64,000 nt of DNA from an uncultured Bifidobacteriaceae bacterium (lineage in GTDB: Bacteria; Verrucomicrobiota; Verrucomicrobiia; Limisphaerales; UBA11358): contig CAZHXG010000002.1 of the NCBI GenBank assembly GCA_964536285.1, positions 66,457-130,456 of the forward strand, written 5' to 3'. The notes under the pieces are model-generated. The model searched no databases. It was not told the DNA's origin and saw only the letters and a program-made list of their open reading frames with translations. Shown in pieces: positions 1-35,598 of the stretch. The translations under genes were made by a program, and so were the position numbers. Positions within the stretch are counted from its first letter, which is position 1. Each line of letters begins with the position of its first letter.

Positions 1-53
1 TCTTTTGTACATCGTGGGAACGAAATCCTGATTTAAGGAATAATTTTCAAAAA

Positions 54-84
54 CCCGCGATTGCCAAGTCAATCGCGGGTTTTT
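54..84. terminator. Hairpin (9-bp stem CCCGCGATT / AATCGCGGG, 8-nt loop) flanked by an A-run and a T-run; possible bidirectional rho-independent terminator
   Basis: Read directly: aaaCCCGCGATTgccaagtcAATCGCGGGttttt. It lies inside the TTG-started ORF-track call 61..456, which argues for the later ATG at 118. Confidence 0.45.
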
Positions 85-117
85 CGCTTTTCAACCAAAG
101 AACAAGAAAGGAAAAAC

Positions 118-456
118 ATGAACAGAAGAAAAACACAGGTGCCGACAAGGTTCGCCCCTGAAACGCGCTTCGAGCTGCGGCCCAATCCGCCCGCTCCGTT
201 CCGCGCATTTCAGGAAACCGAATTCGAGCGGCTCAAGACCAGACTGCTCGCGGAGCAATTGGCCGAAGCACCGACGGCGGAATTAAACACTCCGTTGCGG
301 CGCGCGGCCAACGAGGCGGCGGCACTCGCATGGGTCACACTTTACCCGTTGCTGGTGTTCCCGGAATTGTTCGAGGAAAAAACCCGGACTGTCGTGCGTC
401 AGGCCGAACGCCAGGCGCGCATTTACACCGACAGCCTCGAACTCGTCGCCGTATGA
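118..456 (+). CDS. Hypothetical protein (112 aa)
   Basis: ORF 61..456 trimmed to the first ATG (MNRRKTQ...), downstream of the hairpin at 54..84. GC-rich codon usage like the neighbours. No recognisable motif. Confidence 0.45.
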   Translation: MNRRKTQVPTRFAPETRFELRPNPPAPFRAFQETEFERLKTRLLAEQLAEAPTAELNTPLRRAANEAAALAWVTLYPLLVFPELFEEKTRTVVRQAERQARIYTDSLELVAV

Positions 457-510
457 ACTTGTCGCGCCATAGCAAAGCGGCGGCGGAAACGCGAATGATC
501 AAAGTGACGG

Positions 511-572
511 GTGATGAGTGAAAAGTGACGAGCGTGTTTTTCGCACGTCACTCGTCACCTGTCACTCATCAC
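511..572. repeat. Long imperfect palindrome / hairpin built from GTGA(C/T)GAG-type units
   Basis: Left arm GTGATGAGTGAaaaGTGACGAGCGTG (511-536), loop tttttcg, right arm CACGtcaCTCGTCACctgTCACTCATCAC (544-572). About 23-24 positions pair; one 3-nt internal mismatch and one 3-nt bulge. Confidence 0.7.
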
Positions 573-665
573 TGTTTGGAAAATCTTCGGAACGCGGACG
601 GGCTGTTGCGATGGAGCCAAGTTTCTGCTTGGCGCGACGCCGTCCGTGTTCCTACGCCGCTGAAA

Positions 666-1256
666 TTAGGGCTTCACCAGAACTGAATTGGTATCGCCAA
701 TTCTGATTTTGGTTTCTGTTATGACTGGCACAAGATTGGTAGATTGAATTCCGCAATCGTAGGCCTCGTATGAATTTCCGTTATAAAAATAGTTTTCAAC
801 TTTCATACATCTGCACGGCCTTTTCTGACCATCGCCGCTTATGACTTGGCCGGTAACCAGCGATTCGGAGTCTGGATAATGATAAACAATGATGTTTTTT
901 ATGAATGTCTTGCTCACTAATTCGGGTGCGCCTGTGTAGGTTTCGGGTTGATATTCAATCTCATAAACATCACACGCTATTCCTTTAACGCCTATTTGAT
1001 TTACTTCCACTGAGCATGTCAAAGTGTGCCAAGGATTATAATTTGAGTAAGGCAGTCTTCGAGAATAGCTTAATTTCCAAAGATCGCCCCAAAGTTTTGA
1101 ATAGGCGGTGTTGTAAAGATGGCCGTTCACCACACGCAGAAATTCACCTAGCTTTACCCAATTCGTAACTAAAACTGTTTTGAATTCATTTGTGACAATT
1201 TGTGATTCACAGTTAAACGTGACCAGTAAGGTAGTCAGTAAAAACAGTGTTTTCAT
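666..1256 (-). CDS. Exported hypothetical protein (196 aa), AT-rich gene
   Basis: N-terminal signal-like segment MKTLFLLTTLLVTFNCESQ. Several Cys. Visibly lower GC and AAA/AAT/TTT-rich codons compared with flanking genes. No family recognised. Confidence 0.6.
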   Translation of the reverse strand: MKTLFLLTTLLVTFNCESQIVTNEFKTVLVTNWVKLGEFLRVVNGHLYNTAYSKLWGDLWKLSYSRRLPYSNYNPWHTLTCSVEVNQIGVKGIACDVYEIEYQPETYTGAPELVSKTFIKNIIVYHYPDSESLVTGQVISGDGQKRPCRCMKVENYFYNGNSYEAYDCGIQSTNLVPVITETKIRIGDTNSVLVKP

Positions 1257-1290
1257 TTTGACAAAAACGTCAGTTCCAAGTCCATTTTGG

Positions 1291-1358
1291 AATTCATTTT
1301 TCCTCGACGCGCTGAATCCGCGCGCCGAGCTTCCGCAATTTCGCGTCCATCTTTTCGT
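1291..1358 (-). repeat. Copy A of the murA 3' terminus (68 bp, encodes ...EKMDAKLRKLGARIQRVEEK*)
   Basis: Direct alignment by eye to 2592..2666: 4 substitutions, no indels, and all 4 are synonymous in the murA frame. Confidence 0.9.
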
Positions 1359-1375
1359 GTATGGCAGATTTCATT

Positions 1376-1639
1376 TTAATGGCGCGCATGGTCGGCAAAA
1401 TGCAAATCGAGAATTTTTATGTGCCGGTCGGCGTGGTCCTGCCAGAATTTGACGGCGTATTTGCCGCAAATGTGGATGTCCACGCGGCGGCCCGTCTGGT
1501 CGGGTTCGGTGTAATCGGAAAATTTTTGCGGGTCATCGCGGATGGCAACGAAGCGATTCCGCAAAAGCCGTTGCTCCGAGCGGGAAAGCGTTTCGAGAAA
1601 CTCAATGACTTCATAGTCAATGAGGAGACGATCGTTCAT
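1376..1639 (-). CDS. RelE/ParE-superfamily-like type II toxin (87 aa)
   Basis: Small basic protein ending ...GKYAVKFWQDHADRHIKILDLHFAD, a typical RelE/ParE C-terminal beta-strand pattern. Its ATG lies 2 nt after the stop of the upstream small acidic ORF. The ORF track start (TTG at 1645) was trimmed to the ATG at 1639. Confidence 0.6.
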   Translation of the reverse strand: MNDRLLIDYEVIEFLETLSRSEQRLLRNRFVAIRDDPQKFSDYTEPDQTGRRVDIHICGKYAVKFWQDHADRHIKILDLHFADHARH

Positions 1640-1641
1640 TG

Positions 1642-1842
1642 TCAATTGCCGGACAGACCCAGACGACGATCCAAATCTTCCAGCGTGGCAAATTCCGAGG
1701 CGGGCCGGTCAATTTTTTCCGCGATTTTTTTTCGGTAGACATTATCGCGCGAATCTTGCAGCGACACCAGAAACGCAGTCAATTGCCGCTGCGCATTCGC
1801 ATCCAGCGCGGACAACTCTTGTTTCAATACTTCAATGCTCAC
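1642..1842 (-). CDS. Putative antitoxin (66 aa; addiction-module-component-like)
   Basis: Small helical acidic protein (MSIEVLKQELSALDANAQRQLTAFLVSLQD...) immediately upstream of the toxin-like ORF; classic two-gene TA architecture. Confidence 0.55.
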   Translation of the reverse strand: MSIEVLKQELSALDANAQRQLTAFLVSLQDSRDNVYRKKIAEKIDRPASEFATLEDLDRRLGLSGN

Positions 1843-1883
1843 GGCCTTATTCTAATGCCTAATTTCGCGGAAGCAACCGGCAA

Positions 1884-1958
1884 AATTCATTTTTCCTCCA
1901 GACGTTGAATCCGCGCGCCGAGCTTCCGCAATTTCGCGTCCATCTTTTCGTAGCCGCG
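1884..1958 (-). repeat. Copy B of the murA 3' terminus (75 bp, encodes RGYEKMDAKLRKLGARIQRLEEK*)
   Basis: Aligns to 2592..2666 with 6 substitutions and no indels. It is identical to copy A over gaatccgcgcgccgagcttccgcaatttcgcgtccatcttttcgt. Confidence 0.9.
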
Positions 1959-1961
1959 TTT

Positions 1962-2309
1962 TCACGCCTTCACCAGCGTTTTGACGCAGTAGCTGTTGAG
2001 ACTTTCACCGGCGGCAAGGGCTTTGGCCGCGAGGCGGCGGTGAATCGCCGGTTCAATCCGCAACACAAATTTGCCGCTGAATGATTTCGCCGCCAAAGGA
2101 TCGGGCAGTGGCACGCCGTCTTTGTGAAGCATTTCAATCCACTCCTCGACGGCCTGACACAATTCCGCATACACCCGCGCCTCGTCGCCGCCGTGAACGC
2201 CGCCCGCCATGATTTCCGGGCAACGGCCAATAAAGCACTGATCCTCATCGCTCCACTCCACGAATTTCGCGTAGCGCGCCGCCTGCTCTTTGATTTGCTT
2301 GCGTGTCAT
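1962..2309 (-). CDS. hicB: HicB-family antitoxin (115 aa)
   Basis: The N-terminal HicB fold pattern (FVEWSDEDQCFIGRCPEIMAGGVHGGDEARVYAEL) and the C-terminal RHH-like tail (FVLRIEPAIHRRLAAKALAAGESLNSY) look like HicB. It lies 4 nt downstream of hicA; toxin-first order is typical of hicAB. Confidence 0.85.
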   Translation of the reverse strand: MTRKQIKEQAARYAKFVEWSDEDQCFIGRCPEIMAGGVHGGDEARVYAELCQAVEEWIEMLHKDGVPLPDPLAAKSFSGKFVLRIEPAIHRRLAAKALAAGESLNSYCVKTLVKA

Positions 2310-2313
2310 AAAT

Positions 2314-2508
2314 TTATTCTTTCACCGTGTGCAACGCCCGACGCACGTCCCGTTCCTGATAATGCCTGGCGTCATCGCCCGCGCCGCCGCTGATTGTCAC
2401 CCGCAAACCTTTCGGATGCGTGAAATTCCGATGGCTGCCTTTGCCGCCCCGGTTCACAAACCCCGCTTTTTCCAAGTCGGCAATCAGTTGTCGCACCTTG
2501 CGCGGCAT
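2314..2508 (-). CDS. hicA: HicA-family mRNA interferase toxin (64 aa)
   Basis: MPRKVRQLIADLEKAGFVNRGGKGSHRNFTHP... matches the HicA/YcfA signature (G-x-G-S-H). Confidence 0.85.
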   Translation of the reverse strand: MPRKVRQLIADLEKAGFVNRGGKGSHRNFTHPKGLRVTISGGAGDDARHYQERDVRRALHTVKE

Positions 2509-2511
2509 TTC

Positions 2512-2549
2512 AGTATCAATTTAGTATCACAATTGTTCAAGGCTGTCAA
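2512..2549 (-). promoter_or_regulatory. Candidate hicAB promoter/operator
   Basis: On the minus strand: TTGACA (2549-2544), then the direct repeat TGATACT-aaat-TGATACT ending 3 nt before the hicA ATG. The -10 assignment is ambiguous (GATACT at 15-nt spacing or TACTAA at 17-nt spacing). Confidence 0.3.
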
Positions 2550-2591
2550 ACACGGAAAAAGGGTCAATTCAGATTATTTTGCAGTCCGTAA

Positions 2592-2666
2592 AATTCATTT
2601 TTCCTCGACGCGTTGAATCCTCGCGCCGAGTTTCCGCAACTTCGCGTCCATCTTTTCGTAGCCGCG
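2592..2666 (-). repeat. Copy C = the in-situ 3' end of murA (reference copy for repeats A and B)
   Basis: Contiguous with the murA reading frame; encodes RGYEKMDAKLRKLGARIQRVEEK*. Confidence 0.9.
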
Positions 2667-3857
2667 ATCCAGATGATAAATGCGGTTCACCTGCGTCGCA
2701 CCCTTCGCCGCAAGCCCGGCAATCACCAGCGCCGCGCTCGCGCGCAGATCGCTCGCCATCACCGGCGCGCCGCTCAACGGCCGTCCGCCCTTCACGATCG
2801 CGCTCGGCCCTTCGATCTCGATCTCCGCGCCGAGCCGCGCCAGTTCGCTGACGTGCATGAAGCGCGATTCAAAAATCCGCTCCGTGATGATGCTGATGCC
2901 CGGCGCGAGCGCGAGCAGCGACATCATCTGCGCCTGCACGTCCGTCGGAAAACCGGAATACGGCAGCGTCGTCACGTCCGCCGCGCGCAATTTTTTTCCG
3001 CGACGGACAATCAGATTTCCGCCGCGCTGCTGAATTGAAACTCCGGCTTCATTCAATTTGTCCAAAACCGCGCGCAAGTGGTCGGCGCGGCAATTTTTAA
3101 TCGTCACTTCGCCATTCGTCGCGGCGGCGGCAATGGCAAACGTCGCCGTCTCAATCCGGTCGGGAATCACTTCGTGTTCCGCGCCGTGCAATTTCTTGAC
3201 GCCGGAAATGGTGATGGTGGGACCGCCCGCGCCGGAAATGTCTGCGCCCATCGCGTTCAGAAAATTCGCGAGGTCAACAACTTCCGGCTCGCACGCCGCG
3301 CTTTCGATGACCGTCACGCCATCGGCCAAAGTCGCCGCCATCATCACATTCCCCGTGCCGAGAACCGTCGAGCCGGCGCGTCCGCCGAGAAACATGGTTG
3401 AGCCGACAAGTTTTTTAGTTGTAGCGTCAACGTAGCCGCCCTCGATTTTTATTTTCGCGCCAAGCGATTCAAAACCTTTCAAGTGCAAATTGATTGGCCG
3501 CGCGCCGATGATGCAGCCGCCGGGCAAAGAAATCCGCGCCTTGTGCAACCGCGCGAGCAACGGCCCGGCAATGCAAATCGAGCCGCGCATTTTGCGGACG
3601 AGTTCGTAATCCGCGTAGCCACGGATTTTTTTCGCGCGAACCGTCAGCGTGCCGTTTTCAAATTTCACCTGCGCGCCGAGCGATTCGAGGATTTGCACCA
3701 TGAACCGCGTGTCGCTCAAGTCCGGCACGCGTCGGATGACGCACGGCTCGTTCGTGAGCAGCGTCGCGGCCATGATGGGCAGCGCGGCGTTTTTGCTGCC
3801 GCTGATTTCGACTTCGCCGTGCAAGGGCACGCCGCCTTTGATCAAAAAACTTTCCAT
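2595..3857 (-). CDS. murA: UDP-N-acetylglucosamine 1-carboxyvinyltransferase
   Basis: 420 aa. MESFLIKGGVPLHGEVEISGSKNAALPIMAA..., with full-length MurA pattern including the active-site loop (PGGCIIGARP). Confidence 0.97.
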   Translation of the reverse strand: MESFLIKGGVPLHGEVEISGSKNAALPIMAATLLTNEPCVIRRVPDLSDTRFMVQILESLGAQVKFENGTLTVRAKKIRGYADYELVRKMRGSICIAGPLLARLHKARISLPGGCIIGARPINLHLKGFESLGAKIKIEGGYVDATTKKLVGSTMFLGGRAGSTVLGTGNVMMAATLADGVTVIESAACEPEVVDLANFLNAMGADISGAGGPTITISGVKKLHGAEHEVIPDRIETATFAIAAAATNGEVTIKNCRADHLRAVLDKLNEAGVSIQQRGGNLIVRRGKKLRAADVTTLPYSGFPTDVQAQMMSLLALAPGISIITERIFESRFMHVSELARLGAEIEIEGPSAIVKGGRPLSGAPVMASDLRASAALVIAGLAAKGATQVNRIYHLDRGYEKMDAKLRKLGARIQRVEEK

Positions 3858-3861
3858 GAAA

Positions 3862-4704
3862 TTATTTTTTTGCGATTAAAATTCTGGCGCGCTGACTGTA
3901 ATCTTCCTTCACCGCTTCGACAATCCACTTTTCATTTTGAAAAATTGTGCAAATGGCCTCGGCCTGACCGTCGCCAAATTCCAGCATGATTTTGCCGTCC
4001 GGTTTCAGAAACGCTTTCGCTTTCGCCGCCAGAATCCGATAAAAATCCAGACCGTCCGCGCCGCCGTCCAAAGCCGCGCGCGGATCAAAATCGCGGACTT
4101 CCGGCTGAAGCGTTTCAATTTCAGCCGACGGAATGTAGGGCGGATTGCTCATAATCAAATCGAATTTTGAATCGGCAGAAAGCGCAGCAAATCCATCACC
4201 TTGCAAAAATTCAATCCGTTCCGCGACTTTATTTTGCTCGGCATTTTGTTTCGCCAACGTGAGCGCGTCCGCCGAAACGTCAGTCGCGTTGATTTTTGCA
4301 TTTGGACATTTCGTCGCGAGCGCAATACTGATGCAGCCGGTTCCGGTTCCAAAATCCAAAGCGGCAGTTTTGTTTTCTCCCAAAAATTTCCAGCCTTCTT
4401 CGGCAAGCAATTCCGTTTCCGGTCGTGGGACGAGCGCATGACGGTTCACGGTGATTTCAAATCCGCAGAATGAAGTCGAGCCGACGATATGTTGCAACGG
4501 CTCGCGTTGTCCGCGGCGTTTGACGAGTTCGCGCAACGCATCCGTTTCCGACGGCGTGAGCACACGCTCGAAATTCAGATACAATTTCATGCGCGGCATT
4601 TTCAACAAATGCGCGAGGAGAAGTTCAACTTGCAGGCGCGGCGATTCGATACCTTTTTTGCCAAGAAAATCTGCACTCTTCTGAATCGCTTCAAGTACGG
4701 TCAC
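3862..4704 (-). CDS. prmC: Release-factor glutamine N5-methyltransferase
   Basis: 280 aa. SAM-binding LDFGTGTGCI and catalytic NPPY (MSNPPYIP). Confidence 0.9.
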   Translation of the reverse strand: MTVLEAIQKSADFLGKKGIESPRLQVELLLAHLLKMPRMKLYLNFERVLTPSETDALRELVKRRGQREPLQHIVGSTSFCGFEITVNRHALVPRPETELLAEEGWKFLGENKTAALDFGTGTGCISIALATKCPNAKINATDVSADALTLAKQNAEQNKVAERIEFLQGDGFAALSADSKFDLIMSNPPYIPSAEIETLQPEVRDFDPRAALDGGADGLDFYRILAAKAKAFLKPDGKIMLEFGDGQAEAICTIFQNEKWIVEAVKEDYSQRARILIAKK

Positions 4705-4733
4705 GCGAAGAATCTAAATCGGAATCGCCCGAT

Positions 4734-5246
4734 TCAAAACTTTTTTTGGCCGGATTCATTTTTATCGCGGCTGTGGATGAACAAGCCGGTTTGATAAACG
4801 AGGTAATAGCCGACGGTCAGCCCAAAAATGAAAAGTGTCAGCGGACTTTGAAACGGCATCGTTGGATTTTGCGCGGTTGCCACGTTGCCGGACGGGATAT
4901 ATTTGTAGGCGATGCGGCCGACGAACAAAACTGAAAGCACAACGCCGATGTGTGTATTAGGTTTGTAAAAATGGCCTTCATCGGTCGTGTCGAATCGCGT
5001 GAGGCGCAGTCCGACAAAACCAAGCGGCAGTCCGAGCAACAACCCGCAGCCAAATCCAAGCAGCAAATTTGTGTTTTGCAATGACGTGCCGACAATCACC
5101 ACGCTGACGACGGAAAGAATGACGATGGAAGTGATGGCGCGGCGCGGATGCAGTTTTTGTCTACCTATGTTGCGGCGCACACGGCGATAAATGCTCCAGA
5201 CGAAAACGCCGATTATCACGACGTAAATGAAATAAGACGACGACAT
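4734..5246 (-). CDS. Integral membrane protein, unknown function (170 aa)
   Basis: Four or five hydrophobic segments. Resembles DUF1453/CcdC-type small membrane proteins, but I cannot confirm the family. Confidence 0.6.
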   Translation of the reverse strand: MSSSYFIYVVIIGVFVWSIYRRVRRNIGRQKLHPRRAITSIVILSVVSVVIVGTSLQNTNLLLGFGCGLLLGLPLGFVGLRLTRFDTTDEGHFYKPNTHIGVVLSVLFVGRIAYKYIPSGNVATAQNPTMPFQSPLTLFIFGLTVGYYLVYQTGLFIHSRDKNESGQKKF

Positions 5247-9999: not shown

Positions 10000-10880
10000 T
10001 GCTGATTGCCGCGTCCGCCGTTGAAGGGGGTGCGCGGAGAATATGGATTGTTCCCGTTGTTGAAATTGTTGTTGGGGTTGCCGCCATTCTGATTGCCGTT
10101 GCGCGGGTTGTTGGAATTGTTATTCGGATTTCCGCCACGGCCATTTCCATTTTGTCCGTTTCCATTACCGCCACCACCACCTCCACGACCTCCACCTCCA
10201 CCGCCGCCCACTCTCGGCACTTGCTGCACGGTCAGCACCGTGCTCGATGGCATCGTGATTTCACGCGCGATGGACACCGTCGGACCGTTGCCGGTCGAAT
10301 CGCCATTTTCCGCGAACGTGAGCGTGACCCGCACCATCGGCGGGACGGCATTCGTGTCATCCCATTCCTGCGTCCAGTCCAGCGCATTCGTGTCCCAGCA
10401 TTCGACGAGAAAGTTCTTCACATTGCGCGCAATCACGAGCGGGGTGGCTTGTTCGTCCGAATCCATGTCCTTGAGAATCTCGTTTTGCCGCAGCACCAAG
10501 TCATTTCCCGAATCCGCGTCCGGTTCAATAGCAAAGGTGAGCCGCCGCAAATTGCTGTCGAATCTGCCGTTGCGTGGAAAAATATCCGGCAGCCGCGCGA
10601 CGAAACTCAATTCCGGCTGGTCGCCGTTCTGCAGGATGAAGCTGTAATATTGAAAGGAACCCTGAAAAGATTGGATGCACGTCAGCGAGTCTTCAATGGT
10701 GCGGACGGCGATGCGCTGGCGCTGGATTCGCGCCGCCGCTTCCTGCCCGACTTGCGACGATTTCAAAATCACCACCCACGTCGAATAGACCGCTGCGACG
10801 AGCATCGTGAAAATCGCAAGAGCCACCATGATTTCAATCAAGGTGAACGCGCGACGACGAAGATTTTTTTTGACGTTCAT
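9996..10880 (-). CDS. gspJ: GspJ-like pseudopilin with a 70-aa Gly/Asn-rich C-terminal extension
   Basis: Prepilin-type N-terminus RRAFTLIEIMVALAIFTMLVAAVYS. 4-nt overlaps with both neighbours. C-terminal tail GGGGGGGRGGGGGGNGNGQNGNGRGGNPNNNSNNPRNGNQNGGNPNNNFNNGNNPY... Confidence 0.7.
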   Translation of the reverse strand: MNVKKNLRRRAFTLIEIMVALAIFTMLVAAVYSTWVVILKSSQVGQEAAARIQRQRIAVRTIEDSLTCIQSFQGSFQYYSFILQNGDQPELSFVARLPDIFPRNGRFDSNLRRLTFAIEPDADSGNDLVLRQNEILKDMDSDEQATPLVIARNVKNFLVECWDTNALDWTQEWDDTNAVPPMVRVTLTFAENGDSTGNGPTVSIAREITMPSSTVLTVQQVPRVGGGGGGGRGGGGGGNGNGQNGNGRGGNPNNNSNNPRNGNQNGGNPNNNFNNGNNPYSPRTPFNGGRGNQQ

Positions 10881-11308: not shown

Positions 11309-11853
11309 TTTTTCACCGGCAACGCCGTTGCAATGGACGTGGAAAATTCCAAAGTGATTTTTTCCCAGGCGTCGTTCGCGTGCAGCACGAGGGTCATCTC
11401 ATCGCATGTGCCGTTCGGGAAAAACAGCACGCGGCAAATATCCGAGCCGCTGAAATCCATCAGGTTGACGTCGAGCATCGCGATGTCCACGTTGTCGGGC
11501 AGCGTCGCCGACGTGAGCGCGTCCGCCTGCGTCTTTTTGGCTTCGGTGCTTTCCGCCGTCGTGTCTTCGGTCGCCGCCGCGTCGAGCACTTCCAATGTTT
11601 TGTCGTGCGGATGGAAAACGACCGCTTTGGTGCGCCCCTGCAAAATCGCCTGCGCCCGCGCGGTGTTGAGCACGTCCTTCACGTCGCTCACGGCTTTGCG
11701 CATCCCTTCCTTTTGCAACATTTGGAGCATGGACGGGATGCCCATCGCCGCGATGAGGCCGATGATGGCCACGACCACCATGATTTCAATCAAGGTGAAC
11801 GCCCGAAACGGAAAATTTTTCCTGGCAGCCGTCGTTTTCATCAAAAGCCTCAA
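11305..11853 (-). CDS. gspH: GspH-like pseudopilin
   Basis: 182 aa. FRAFTLIEIMVVVAIIGLIAAMGIPS prepilin N-terminus. Follows gspF with a 4-nt overlap. Confidence 0.65.
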   Translation of the reverse strand: MRLLMKTTAARKNFPFRAFTLIEIMVVVAIIGLIAAMGIPSMLQMLQKEGMRKAVSDVKDVLNTARAQAILQGRTKAVVFHPHDKTLEVLDAAATEDTTAESTEAKKTQADALTSATLPDNVDIAMLDVNLMDFSGSDICRVLFFPNGTCDEMTLVLHANDAWEKITLEFSTSIATALPVKK

Positions 11854-16620: not shown

Positions 16621-16695
16621 TGGTGCGCGCTGCAGGGTTTGAACCTGCGACCCCATCCGTGTGAAGGATGTGCTCTACCGCTGAGCTAAGCGCGC
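16621..16695 (-). tRNA. tRNA-Val (anticodon CAC)
   Basis: Folded by hand: acceptor GCGCGCT/AGCGCGC, D-arm GCTC-AGCGGTA-GAGC, anticodon stem CATCC/GGATG with loop TTCACAC, T-arm GCAGG-TTCAAAC-CCTGC, discriminator A, encoded CCA. Confidence 0.9.
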
Positions 16696-24547: not shown

Positions 24548-24784
24548 TCAACTGCGCGCGGCCGGTTTCTTTTTGGAAGTTTCAGGACGGAATTCCAGGA
24601 TTTCCCCCGGCTGGCAGTCGAGCGTTTCGCAAATCGCCTCGAGCGTGGAGAAGCGGATGGCCTTGGCCTTGCCGGTTTTGAGGATGGACAGGTTTTGCGG
24701 CGTGATGTCCACGGCCTCGGCCAGATCGTTCAGCCGCATTTTGCGCTGCGCGAGAACCACGTCGAGATTGACGATGATGGGCAT
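24548..24784 (-). CDS. XRE/Cro-C1 family HTH regulator (YozG-like)
   Basis: 78 aa. LAQRKMRLNDLAEAVDITPQNLSILKTGKAKAIRFSTLEAICETLDCQPGEILEF is the YozG-type signature that usually accompanies DUF2975 membrane proteins. Confidence 0.85.
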   Translation of the reverse strand: MPIIVNLDVVLAQRKMRLNDLAEAVDITPQNLSILKTGKAKAIRFSTLEAICETLDCQPGEILEFRPETSKKKPAARS

Positions 24785-24788
24785 AAAC

Positions 24789-25337
24789 TTAAACCGTCAA
24801 TTCCTGTTCCTCTTGAATCTTCCGGCCTTCGTCCATGATGCGGGAAATCACAACCAAGAAAAGTCCTACAATAACCCAAGGCGACGTTAAAAATGCACAA
24901 ATACTAATCCATACAAAATTCAACGACATGGGAAACGAACCAATCCATGCAAACCACGTTGAAATTAGCAGCGGACTAAATATGCCGAGAAATCCATAAA
25001 TAAAAGCCAAACATCCGATTCTGCCAAGTAGTTGAACATTTCTGCCGGAAAAAATAATTCCTTTTTCAAAAAGGTTTAATAATTGATACCAAGTTATGAC
25101 GACTGCAAAAATTAAGCCAGCTCCCAATACAACAATCAATTTCGCGCCGAATGGCGCGTCAGAAAATGTCGTGTATGTTCCCCAAACTATTTGAACTCCA
25201 TCCGGCATCTTGCGAACAAACGGGAGACATCCGAAGAAAACAAAATACAGCAGAGATAGAATTTTAAGAATCCGGCTCATAATTTTGATTCGATTCAACC
25301 GAAGATTGGCCTTTGGAGAAATTTCATTCGCATTCAT
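24789..25337 (-). CDS. DUF2975-like membrane protein (paralogue 1)
   Basis: 182 aa, four or five TM segments, C-terminal IMDEGRKIQEEQELTV typical of DUF2975. AT-rich. Confidence 0.7.
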   Translation of the reverse strand: MNANEISPKANLRLNRIKIMSRILKILSLLYFVFFGCLPFVRKMPDGVQIVWGTYTTFSDAPFGAKLIVVLGAGLIFAVVITWYQLLNLFEKGIIFSGRNVQLLGRIGCLAFIYGFLGIFSPLLISTWFAWIGSFPMSLNFVWISICAFLTSPWVIVGLFLVVISRIMDEGRKIQEEQELTV

Positions 25338-25358
25338 AAATTTGAAAAGTTGGTTTAG

Positions 25359-25928
25359 TTAAACCGTCAATTCCTGCTCCTCTTGAATCTTCCGGCCTTC
25401 GTCCATGATCCAGGCAATTAAAACGATTACTGTTCCGGCCAATAAAAATCCGAAATTAATGCCCCAAATATCAAACGAGAAAAATCCCATGCGACTAATC
25501 GTCGCCTCTTTGACAGTGACGCTAACTCCCGGCGGCAAAGTTGGTTGGAACGGAATGATGGGATAATATTTGAGTAAAATATGATAAGTAGTTCCCAATA
25601 TCCATTGTGCCACGCATAACAATCCCAAAAATTTTATGCAACGCACAGCTTCAGAAGCAAAAATCAAACCCCGCTCATAAAAGCCGAACAATCGAGCCAG
25701 CTTCCAATACCAAAGACATATTACGATTTGTGTAGCCACCACACACAGAGCGCGCCAAGCATTGCCTTTGAAATTCCATGACGATCCTGACGAAAATAGG
25801 ACGCCAAAAAAGAAATAAACGATCAAGAGGATAAACAATGCCAGAAAGATATACCTAACAATCCGACTGACATTTCTGATTCGATTCAATCGAAAATTAG
25901 TTTTGGGAGAATTTTCATTCGCATTCAT
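25359..25928 (-). CDS. DUF2975-like membrane protein (paralogue 2)
   Basis: 189 aa from MNANENSPK. It has the same N-terminus (MNANExSPKxNxRLNRI) and an identical C-terminal 15 aa as paralogue 1. About 50 nt at the 3' ends are near-identical (24786..24838 vs 25358..25410). Confidence 0.7.
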   Translation of the reverse strand: MNANENSPKTNFRLNRIRNVSRIVRYIFLALFILLIVYFFFGVLFSSGSSWNFKGNAWRALCVVATQIVICLWYWKLARLFGFYERGLIFASEAVRCIKFLGLLCVAQWILGTTYHILLKYYPIIPFQPTLPPGVSVTVKEATISRMGFFSFDIWGINFGFLLAGTVIVLIAWIMDEGRKIQEEQELTV

Positions 25929-25972
25929 GGCGCAAGGAATAAACCAATCAATTCCGTAAGTCAAGCTTTTTT

Positions 25973-35245: not shown

Positions 35246-35598
35246 GGGGGCGCACTGGTTTCGACCATGTGAACACGCCAGAGGCGGCATGCCGAGGAAG
35301 ATGCGTTGGCCTCGTTAATCATTCGCATCAAAACAAAACAGCTAATCAAGAACTAGCTCTCGCGGCCTAAGCGCCACGACGTCCGCCACTGGACACCTGC
35401 TACGGTGGACGGACGCCACAGCAGGCGGGGTTGAAGGCGGAGTCTGCGCGCCGGCAACCGACTCTTATCCTGCGGACTAGGCAGTGCGACTCGCGCCCGG
35501 ACGCCATCGCACAGCAGAAAAAATTCTCCGGGCTAAGCATGTAGTCGCGGCTGGTAGGTTGACTTGGGACGCGGGTTCAATTCCCGCCGCCTCCACCA
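35246..35598 (+). ncRNA. ssrA: tmRNA (SsrA), tag reading frame ...ANQELALAA*
   Basis: The 5' GGGGGCG pairs with 3' CGCCTCC-A-CCA, with a G3:U pair (tRNA-Ala identity). The 3' end has a T-arm GGACGCGGGTTCAATTCCCGCC. The internal ORF gct aat caa gaa cta gct ctc gcg gcc taa lies at 35341..35370. Confidence 0.92.

Follow-up and report, generated by a model that had tools for sequence, protein, structure and literature searches.

The spacer between murA and its convergent neighbour gene is a cargo hotspot in Limisphaerales (Verrucomicrobiota subdivision 3), described here from a stretch of 64,000 nucleotides (the window; GenBank assembly GCA_964536285.1, contig CAZHXG010000002.1) in which the 3' end of murA occurs three times around two small toxin-antitoxin (TA) cassettes. 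Observed at this site are direct repeats of the murA end, polymorphism of the content among relatives, junctions of cargo and repeat that are shared between lineages, exchange of one cassette (hicAB), duplication of the flank on the other side of the hotspot, and no recombinases nearby. The explanation we prefer, with a probability of about 0.45 and thus slightly short of even odds, is that cassettes carrying a piece of the hotspot flank have been gained, exchanged and stacked by homologous recombination of the host, after rare illegitimate founding joints.

How minimal TA modules move between chromosomes without a mobility gene is poorly understood. The murA locus offers readable footprints in this respect, namely borders marked by duplicated terminators and by the orphaned ends of an essential gene, junctions that cross species, and an exchanged cassette.

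Three copies of the murA 3' end

The array consists of copy C (2591-2666), which is the functional end of murA, and the orphan copies B (1884-1958) and A (1291-1358), which lie downstream of murA in direct orientation. An earlier note, made from the sequence alone, had placed three such copies here, and its observation is borne out in every detail. Copies A and C differ by four substitutions, B and C by six and A and B by four, without any indels. All four differences between A and C are synonymous in the murA frame (AAA/AAG, AAG/AAA, CGG/AGG and CAG/CAA), and copy B adds the changes CGT and GTC>CTG (V>L). The gaps between cassette and repeat are 3 nt and 17 nt, and murA remains intact (420 aa). 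Indeed, a 44-nt degenerate pattern matched exactly three times in the window, at copies A, B and C, as against no match in 100 shuffles. The emphasis has to be shifted in one respect: a conserved non-coding motif of ~45 nt follows copy C (2550-2594) and a degraded form of it follows copy A (1263-1290), so that the repeat unit at times reaches beyond the stop codon.

The last 40 nt of murA contain a GC-rich hairpin of 9-10 bp (CTCGGCGCG..CGCGTCGAG), which is present in copies C (2605-2640) and A (1304-1338) and broken in copy B by the CGT CTG changes. Single-strand folding gave z-scores of -1.8 (C), +0.4 (B) and -2.6 (A) on the murA-sense strand and of -0.7 (C) and +1.4 (B) on the opposite strand; copy B thus folds no better than shuffles. 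Searches for known RNA families in window positions 1-4000 returned sub-threshold noise only.

A polymorphic hotspot in the relatives

The comparison is based on ~190 collected loci (denoted by L-numbers), of which 80 come from genomes, 80 from metagenomes and ~30 more were found through homologues of the TA genes. The closest murA genes belong to metagenome-assembled genomes (MAGs) of Limisphaerales. Both murA and the convergent neighbour gene are visible in 101 loci; the spacer between them is empty (<=350 bp) in 58 and measures 0.4-6.5 kb in 43. A long terminator-like hairpin (GGAGCGCGGAC...GTCCGCGCTCC) begins a few bases past the murA stop codon where the spacer is empty. The cargo is highly diverse, its 262 open reading frames (ORFs) falling into 208 clusters, which include several TA families, an acyltransferase, a GmrSD-type nuclease, a serpin and many proteins of no known kind. 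Lineages with a murA ~90% identical to that of the window show at least ten different contents, the empty site of L002 among them, and it is because of such differences between close lineages that we regard the site as a polymorphic hotspot. The footprints of insertion that the earlier note had read from one sequence thus have their counterpart in relatives with empty sites and with cassettes of differing number and kind.

Several contigs with a Limisphaerales-type murA (80-96% identical) and conserved synteny belong to oddly named MAGs (L029, L032, L043, L076, L078, L001, L035, L061, L064, L065 and L074). The record names of such oddly filed contigs are Bifidobacteriaceae, Bifidobacterium, Methylomirabilota, Sulfopaludibacter, Limnocylindrales, Acidoferrum, Sulfotelmatobacter and Akkermansia muciniphila; these records are probably mis-binned or mislabelled.

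Orphan murA ends and their junctions

Orphan copies downstream of murA, located in the collected loci with a profile of murA 3' ends, occur in about a dozen lineages (Table 1). The elements had been thought to carry TA genes only, a view that has to be given up: orphan-bounded cassettes also hold an acyltransferase, a 126-aa ORF or an XRE regulator. The left edge of the orphans lies 38-88 nt ahead of the stop codon and varies with the type of cargo, while the right edge lies 4-8 nt past the stop codon or beyond the conserved ~45-nt motif (ATTTTACAGACTGCAAAATAATTGGGACTGACCCnTTT). Common to all orphans are the last ~38 nt of murA and the stop codon. The post-stop motif was found solely in occupied loci, where it adjoins either murA or an orphan.

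Each type of cargo has one constant junction with its orphan across genomes. For example, the junction hicB|CGCGGCTAC is identical in five lineages (the window, L053, L114, L190 and L193). A junction of the form toxin..TGCCATAC|ACGA is found in three lineages; it reads ..TGCCA(C)ATAC|ACGA in the window and in L089/L090 and has a small indel in L193.

In several genomes the cargo has at its far end an inverted copy of the second half of the post-stop motif (TACTTGGGACTGACCCGTTTA), which results in terminal inverted repeats of ~21 bp around differing cargo. Motif or inverted half were seen at window 2550-2594, at L063 9264-9301 and 9836-9857, and in L034, L033, L037, L011, L151 and L190; in L037 the motif half is duplicated in tandem. 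A dispersed repeat or miniature inverted-repeat transposable element was considered for the repeats and discarded, the murA fragment and the post-stop motif being found solely beside murA in the window and in ~2 Mb of loci.

Duplicated terminators on the other side of the hotspot

When the ~2 Mb of loci were searched systematically for direct repeats, a second class emerged, in which a TA pair (Phd-like, 83 aa, and RelE-like, 93-96 aa), oriented as the neighbour gene, lies between two copies of the native terminator (Table 1). The junctions of these terminator duplications are at differing positions in different genomes. Both classes are found together in L193, where the order is murA, hicAB, orphan, second TA pair (TA2), orphan with motif, ORF, terminator, ParDE, terminator and neighbour gene. 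Since TA cassettes of the same spacer are framed by copies of the native terminator, the duplication of the flank is not specific to murA. A specific targeting of the murA 3' end, as had been supposed, is contradicted by these pairs and also by the occurrence of the same TA families behind other genes without any duplication.

Indeed, the RelE-fold pair of the window has homologues between the malate dehydrogenase (mdh) and thioesterase genes in L092-L100, and hicAB is found directly after a NAD-dependent epimerase gene in L194-L199. No duplicated 3' ends of mdh or of the epimerase gene were present around the TA genes in L092-L100 and L194-L199. A further hicAB homologue lies at L020 21-585, ~8.6 kb upstream of murA.

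Identity of the two TA cassettes

The cassette between copies C and B was correctly recognized as hicAB: a HicA toxin gene is followed by a HicB antitoxin gene in one operon, and both products match their Pfam families (HicA_toxin and HicB) above the curated cut-offs. The second pair, of 66 aa and 87 aa, has no match in Pfam or NCBIfam. A structural model of the 87-aa protein, built from 30 homologues with a mean confidence (pLDDT) of 91.1, has RelE toxins as its best structural matches (TM 0.70-0.78), for which reason we read the protein as a toxin of RelE fold. The label 'RelE/ParE-like' that had been given to the pair would hold by predicted fold, with a small putative antitoxin gene upstream that overlaps by 4 nt. 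The RelE-fold toxin gene in the L192/L193 array has an in-frame premature stop codon (..TTG TGA AAC.., L193 ~4676-4945), and its antitoxin gene is intact.

History and exchange of the cassettes

Horizontal exchange of the hicAB cassette is indicated by sequence comparison with L190, in which hicA and hicB are 96.4% and 97.1% identical to those of the window, whereas murA and prmC are 91.2% and 87.9% identical. At third codon positions the identity amounts to 168/181 in the cassette versus 559/702 in the core (Fisher p = 1e-5). The arrangement in L190 is murA, hicAB, a 76-nt orphan with the motif, and other cargo, so that the motif is on the opposite side of the cassette from that in the window. 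A rare GGAAACTC variant is common to the functional murA end of L190 and copy C of the window. Incongruent histories of cassette and host are also evident from L114 and L053, where HicB is only 69% identical to that of the window although murA of L114 is 89.5% identical.

In L192 and L193 the same two-cassette array stands behind a murA that is only 82% identical. The window and L193 are collinear at 83% all the way from murA to copy A (murA alone, 81.7%), and at third positions the cassettes (251/336) are somewhat closer than murA (276/421; p = 0.007). The array is therefore old, or transferable as a block, rather than the product of two private events of recent date. The divergence of TA2 tracks that of murA in L056 and L089.

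The orphans of L089, L060, L108 and L193 agree with the murA allele of their own host at positions that are lineage-specific and in part non-synonymous, and that of L053 looks mosaic. Such agreement between orphan and host allele suggests that crossovers or gene conversion have taken place within the repeats. As for the window itself, copies A and B have the majority allele of the closest relatives and C has three minority variants; copy A is 1 nt away from the functional murA end of L105, with the same TGAATTCCA continuing. The extra copies had been attributed to other murA alleles, for which the polarity is probably the reverse. Because an orphan that evolves neutrally should accumulate changes more quickly than a gene end under constraint, we tentatively read C, rather than A and B, as imported: judged from a few sites, copy C may have come in by recombination, probably together with the present hicAB allele. 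Sliding divergence along murA placed no recombination breakpoint, the counts being too small. Considered as a hotspot of homologous recombination, the locus thus shows incongruent divergence of cassette and core, and mosaic or host-like orphans, the mechanism itself being outside the reach of sequence.

Searches for recombinases, plasmids and phages

The earlier note had seen no recombinase in the window, and we find none that is recognizable there by motif expressions or phmmer. Expressions for the catalytic motifs of tyrosine and serine recombinases gave nothing convincing in the window or in 160 loci; the sole matches were two weak serine-motif ones upstream of murA. A phage integrase compared by phmmer with 8012 stop-to-stop ORFs found nothing below E 0.09. 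Similarly, 65 large cargo ORFs searched against Pfam yielded no integrase and one DDE transposase (in one locus) among the best 25 of 65 families listed, a weak integrase being able to escape. Altogether, no integrase or recombinase was found downstream of murA in the ~190 loci, over 7-8 kb of flank and at limited sensitivity. A 398-aa gene at 7028-8224 of L192/L193, just past the neighbour gene, has a weak match to rve (DDE integrase/transposase) and lacks a counterpart in the window.

Viral contigs contained no murA 3' fragment; nine matches in them to a 17-nt core of the motif do not extend and were read as chance. The array had no match in plasmid and phage collections, and a literature search on murA as an integration site found nothing relevant.

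Organization of the locus

Outward from murA, the window contains the hicAB operon, the RelE-fold TA operon and an AT-rich 196-aa ORF (Table 1). Upstream of the array follow murA, prmC, a CcdC-like gene and a deacetylase gene, as assigned with Pfam. The hicAB promoter is a putative assignment by eye, a scan for consensus promoters having been negative. The 196-aa ORF has a signal-peptide-like N-terminus. No homologue of it was found among the 80 genome loci, and it is probably one more foreign cargo gene that lacks an orphan repeat of its own.

Table 1. Features of the murA locus in the window, cargo bounded by orphan murA ends and terminator duplications in related loci
Feature	Position or locus	Strand	Remarks
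Convergent neighbour gene, 112 aa	118..456	+	Conserved, no family match; far edge of hotspot; tblastn in 101 loci
Second hairpin	511..572	.	22-nt arms, 91% complementary; downstream of neighbour gene
Native terminator-like long hairpin, GGAACGCGGAC..GTCCGTGTTCC	586..662	.	Directly after murA stop in empty sites; duplicated around TA cassettes elsewhere
196-aa ORF	666..1256	-	No family match; ~40% G+C vs 55-60% around
Degraded post-stop motif after copy A, ..GGACTTGGAACTGAC..	1263..1290	-	Weak match, E 3.8
Repeat copy A, orphan murA 3' end	1291..1358	-	68 nt including stop; 17 nt past toxin stop
RelE-fold toxin (predicted), 87 aa	1376..1639	-	AlphaFold pLDDT 91.1; Foldseek to RelE 2khe, 1wmi; 188 homologue clusters
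Putative antitoxin, 66 aa	1642..1842	-	4-nt overlap with toxin ORF; no family match; conserved toxin partner in L056, L089-L100
Upstream region of second TA operon, GCCGGTTGCTTCC..TAGAAT	1843..1883	-	Conserved in L056, L089, L091, L193
Repeat copy B, orphan murA 3' end	1884..1958	-	75 nt including stop; 3 nt past hicB stop
hicB antitoxin, 115 aa	1962..2309	-	Pfam HicB (PF05534) E 4e-13; 1544 homologues at E<=1e-20
hicA toxin, 64 aa	2314..2508	-	Pfam HicA_toxin (PF07927) E 1.4e-9
Putative hicAB promoter/operator region, TTGACAGCC..TGATACTAAATTGATACTGAAATG	2509..2549	-	Conserved in hicAB cassettes of L053, L114, L190, L193
Post-stop motif, ~45 nt, ATTTTACGGACTGCAAAATAATCTGAATTGACCCTTTTT	2550..2594	-	nhmmer, motif profile; conserved in relatives
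Repeat copy C	2591..2666	-	Functional last 72 nt of murA + stop codon + 4 nt
murA (UDP-N-acetylglucosamine 1-carboxyvinyltransferase)	2595..3857	-	420 aa; Pfam EPSP_synthase E 3.7e-106; 80-96% identical homologues in Limisphaerales MAGs
Orphan-bounded cargo	L017, L105		126-aa ORF
Orphan-bounded cargo	L031, L065		Phd/RelE pair
Orphan-bounded cargo	L053, L114, L190/191		hicAB
Orphan-bounded cargo	L060		Acyltransferase
Orphan-bounded cargo	L089/090		RelE-fold pair
Orphan-bounded cargo	L104		DUF433 + PIN-like pair
Orphan-bounded cargo	L108		XRE regulator and others
Orphan-bounded cargo	L192/193		hicAB, then RelE-fold pair; three copies as in window
Terminator duplication	L001 (10059-11058)/L102		66 nt, 98.5% identical
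Terminator duplication	L071 1746-2487		65 nt
Terminator duplication	L156 9146-9956		118 nt
Terminator duplication	L149 8543-10337		65 nt + third copy of 38 nt
Terminator duplication	L018		57 nt; no TA pair identified between copies
Terminator duplication	L193 5511-6229		ParDE-type pair between two terminator copies

Elsewhere in the window, positions 24789-25964 (minus strand) were considered as a second duplication of a gene end and rejected. They hold two tandem paralogous genes for membrane proteins (182 and 201 aa) with near-identical ends (C-terminal 66 nt, 91%; N-terminal ~100 nt, 73-82%) and diverged middles, followed by a 78-aa HTH gene (24548-24784), and look like tandem paralogues with conserved termini rather than a cassette insertion. 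A 46-nt direct repeat (10823-10868 and 11775-11820, 87% identical) codes for the N-terminal FTLIEIMV motif, of the prepilin type, in two adjacent pseudopilin-like genes, which are ordinary paralogues. The tmRNA gene lies at 35246-35598 (tag ANQELALAA) and the tRNA nearest to the array, tRNA-Val(CAC), at 16621-16695; no repeats of their 3' ends were detected within 8 kb.

How the array could have been built

The mobile unit would be a TA operon with a trailing murA fragment, that is, its own promoter, two genes and 68-75 nt of the murA 3' end. The body of murA would provide the homology on the left, and the orphan fragment, by pairing with the resident murA end, that on the right. The incoming DNA could be linear and enter by a double crossover, or be a circle looped out between two repeats and enter by a single one, with the same product in either case. 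It would bring along a complete murA end, and the former end would be displaced distally as a new orphan, so that repeated entry would stack the cassettes with the newest closest to murA. The presence of the minority variants in copy C is as expected if the functional end comes with the newest cassette. Each founding joint between cargo and murA would have a single origin in illegitimate joining, and later crossovers or gene conversion among the three repeats within 1.4 kb would keep the orphans host-like. What we infer in this scheme is the dependence on RecA, the nature of the intermediate and the sequence in which the events took place.

The earlier note had left the choice between site-specific and homology-guided insertion, of which the latter fits better. 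A murA-specific recombinase with a fixed core is disfavoured by the edges that vary on both sides, the duplication of the adjoining flank, the host-like orphans, the shared junctions and the lack of recombinases nearby.

Several points weigh against recombination by homology arms. No intermediate, excision product or empty site within the population was seen, and every contig of the species has the same array. Orphans of 38-53 nt offer little length for RecA-dependent pairing to be efficient, and the founding illegitimate joints are postulated. The host-like sequence that extends up to the junction in L089 and L193 needs crossovers very near the edge of the repeat or additional gene conversion. 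A recombinase could be encoded elsewhere in the genome, the screens having covered 7-8 kb of flank at limited sensitivity. Finally, the divergence of the TA2 cassette keeps rough pace with that of murA, and in L193 the entire array is collinear, so that vertical descent with loss could account for much of the pattern.

If recombination by homology arms is nevertheless the correct explanation, ordinary recombination can build ordered, integron-like arrays beside an essential gene, and orphan gene ends could be used genome-wide to find hotspots in uncultured bacteria. A more far-reaching and more doubtful version is that small operons, mostly TA, spread as 'address-tagged' cassettes, in which a 40-120-nt copy of the flank (an essential gene's 3' end or its terminator) is a portable homology arm. 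Host RecA alone would then suffice for their scarless insertion, for integron-like stacking with the newest by the gene, for looping out as circles and for transfer between species. The result would be a recombinase-free cassette system and a concrete answer to the question of how naked TA modules move.

Alternative explanations

Direct repeats that hold and restore the 3' end of a conserved gene are the classic footprint of an integrase, and the array could have arisen by accretion as in cis-mobilizable elements (CIMEs). The cassettes would then be integrase-less, with attL and attR sites that include the murA 3' end, and their excision, as well as their successive integration into the functional end to form an array, would be catalysed in trans by a tyrosine or serine recombinase of an autonomous element with the same target. 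Tandem arrays with integrase-less members are known, both as CIMEs of the ICESt1 type (PMC5704250) and among the ssrA islands of Dehalococcoides (PMC3146451), and the last ~38 nt with the stop codon that all orphans share could hold a core site, the GC-rich hairpin included. We consider this course unlikely. The ssrA islands and CIMEs have an integrase at the same site in many genomes, whereas no recombinase stands beside murA in ~190 loci; the end-points of the repeats vary on both sides; and viral contigs contain no attP-like murA fragment. Moreover, the left parts of the orphans follow the host allele and not the cassette (L089, L193), which is not to be expected from a conservative crossover at a fixed core, and other cassettes of the same spacer are framed by duplicated terminators instead of murA sequence. 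Should a hidden recombinase be responsible after all, the locus would represent a new system, specific to murA, whose satellite cassettes are very small.

Alternatively, the repeats could be old and now inert duplications, produced by rare ancient illegitimate events, inherited vertically, lost in most lineages by deletion between repeats and homogenized by gene conversion, with no ongoing mobility. The order murA, motif, hicAB, orphan, TA2, orphan is indeed identical in L192/L193 in spite of the diverged murA (81.7%; collinear at 83%), the divergence of TA2 follows that of murA in L056 and L089, the array is fixed in all contigs of the species, and L089 and L193 contain decayed orphans and a toxin gene with a premature stop codon. 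To this history, too, we give little credence, since the hicAB of the window and L190 is far closer than the flanking core genes (p = 1e-5), the cassettes of the window and L193 are closer than murA (p = 0.007), and HicB of L114 and L053 has diverged to 69% despite the 89.5% of L114 murA. The ten or more contents among lineages at ~90% murA identity are likewise at odds with it, and the lack of the minority variants of C in copies A and B is not predicted by divergence in situ with conversion.

It is improbable that the cassettes are relics of larger elements, such as phage-like integrations or integrations of ICEs (integrative and conjugative elements) at the murA end, deleted down to addictive TA modules and att repeats. 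TA modules resist loss and are frequent survivors of decayed elements, the definition of CIMEs includes a deletion route (PMC5704250), one locus has a DDE transposase in its cargo, and the rve-type gene of L192/193 lies just past the neighbour gene. Against this, the cassettes are closely trimmed, each running from its promoter to a stop codon that lies 3 or 17 nt from the following repeat; an identical trimmed junction is found in lineages that have diverged by 10-18%, and no larger parent element was found at the murA site in any locus.

An assembly artefact that merges strain variants at the repeat has a negligible chance of being the explanation: several short contigs do end at or in repeats (L087, L088, L104 and L114), but the three copies differ, measure at most 77 nt and are thus shorter than the final k=141 and typical reads, the array with the same junctions is recovered at 99.7-100% identity in contigs from at least six independent ENA and JGI samples (L081-L088), and unrelated MAGs as well as a long-read-style contig (L193) have related arrays, so that the mis-assembly that the earlier note had wished to see excluded is not its source.

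Comparison with known systems

The earlier note had supposed that such elements do not belong to a described class. Close concepts do exist, however, in CIMEs formed by accretion, in ssrA islands, and in minimal mobile elements and recombination hotspots. CIMEs derive from, and are mobilized by, related ICEs or integrative and mobilizable elements that have an integrase at the same site (PMC5704250). The direct-repeat copies A, B and C and the orphans in a dozen relatives resemble the CIMEs of Streptococcus thermophilus (ICESt1/ICESt3 at fda). Unlike these, no autonomous integrase-bearing element was found downstream of murA in ~190 loci, the cassettes are only 0.5-0.7 kb, and the non-murA flank is duplicated as well. 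By contrast to the constant core of CIMEs, the left edges of the murA orphans lie 38-88 nt before the stop codon, the right edges vary too, and the parts near the junction are host-like (L089 and L193).

The ssrA islands of Dehalococcoides stand in tandem downstream of an essential single-copy gene, each with a direct repeat of its 3' end, and some lack an integration module (PMC3146451). Their repeats have a constant length of 20 bp and an insertion point that has been mapped, and the serine recombinase gene dsiB is located at attL in 16 islands (PMC3146451). The murA array is likewise tandem, behind an essential gene and bounded by direct repeats of its 3' end, but these are 38-88 nt long with variable edges, and a recombinase was not found.

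The founding joints between cargo and murA have a candidate route, by analogy, in homology-facilitated illegitimate recombination, in which one homologous anchor and one illegitimate joint integrate foreign DNA, as shown experimentally in transformation and conjugation, usually with deletion of recipient DNA (PMC3240628). A joint upstream of the end of the anchor would leave a duplicated gene end.

Integron arrays and clusters of attC sites lacking integron-integrases (CALINs) are comparable in their small cassettes, often with TA genes, in one orientation and with a repeated element between them; the newest cassette of the murA array would, as in integrons, be at the point of entry. The murA array differs in having neither intI nor a tyrosine recombinase motif nearby, and it has no imperfect palindrome of the attC type. 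An integron- or attC-like structure was rejected for the repeat, which is murA coding sequence and folds unremarkably, copy B no better than shuffles.

Tycheposons of Prochlorococcus are cargo islands formed by repeated insertion at the end of a conserved gene, with partial copies of this gene between the cargo blocks. They insert at tRNA genes and carry their own tyrosine recombinase or transposase-like genes, whereas the murA array is located at a protein gene, its nearest tRNA gene lies at 16621, and no recombinase was found.

The minimal mobile elements of Neisseria consist of differing whole-gene cassettes, often TA or restriction genes, between two conserved genes; they have no mobility genes, and their exchange is credited to homologous recombination in the flanks. 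Similarly, the interval between murA and its neighbour holds different cassettes (58 of 101 spacers empty, 43 occupied; 208 clusters) and no mobility genes were found with them in the screens, apart from the DDE transposase in one locus. Unlike the allelic replacement between two flanks in Neisseria, pieces of the murA 3' end or of the terminator are duplicated here and travel with the cassette, which makes stacked arrays possible and leaves behind orphan ends of the gene that mark the borders.

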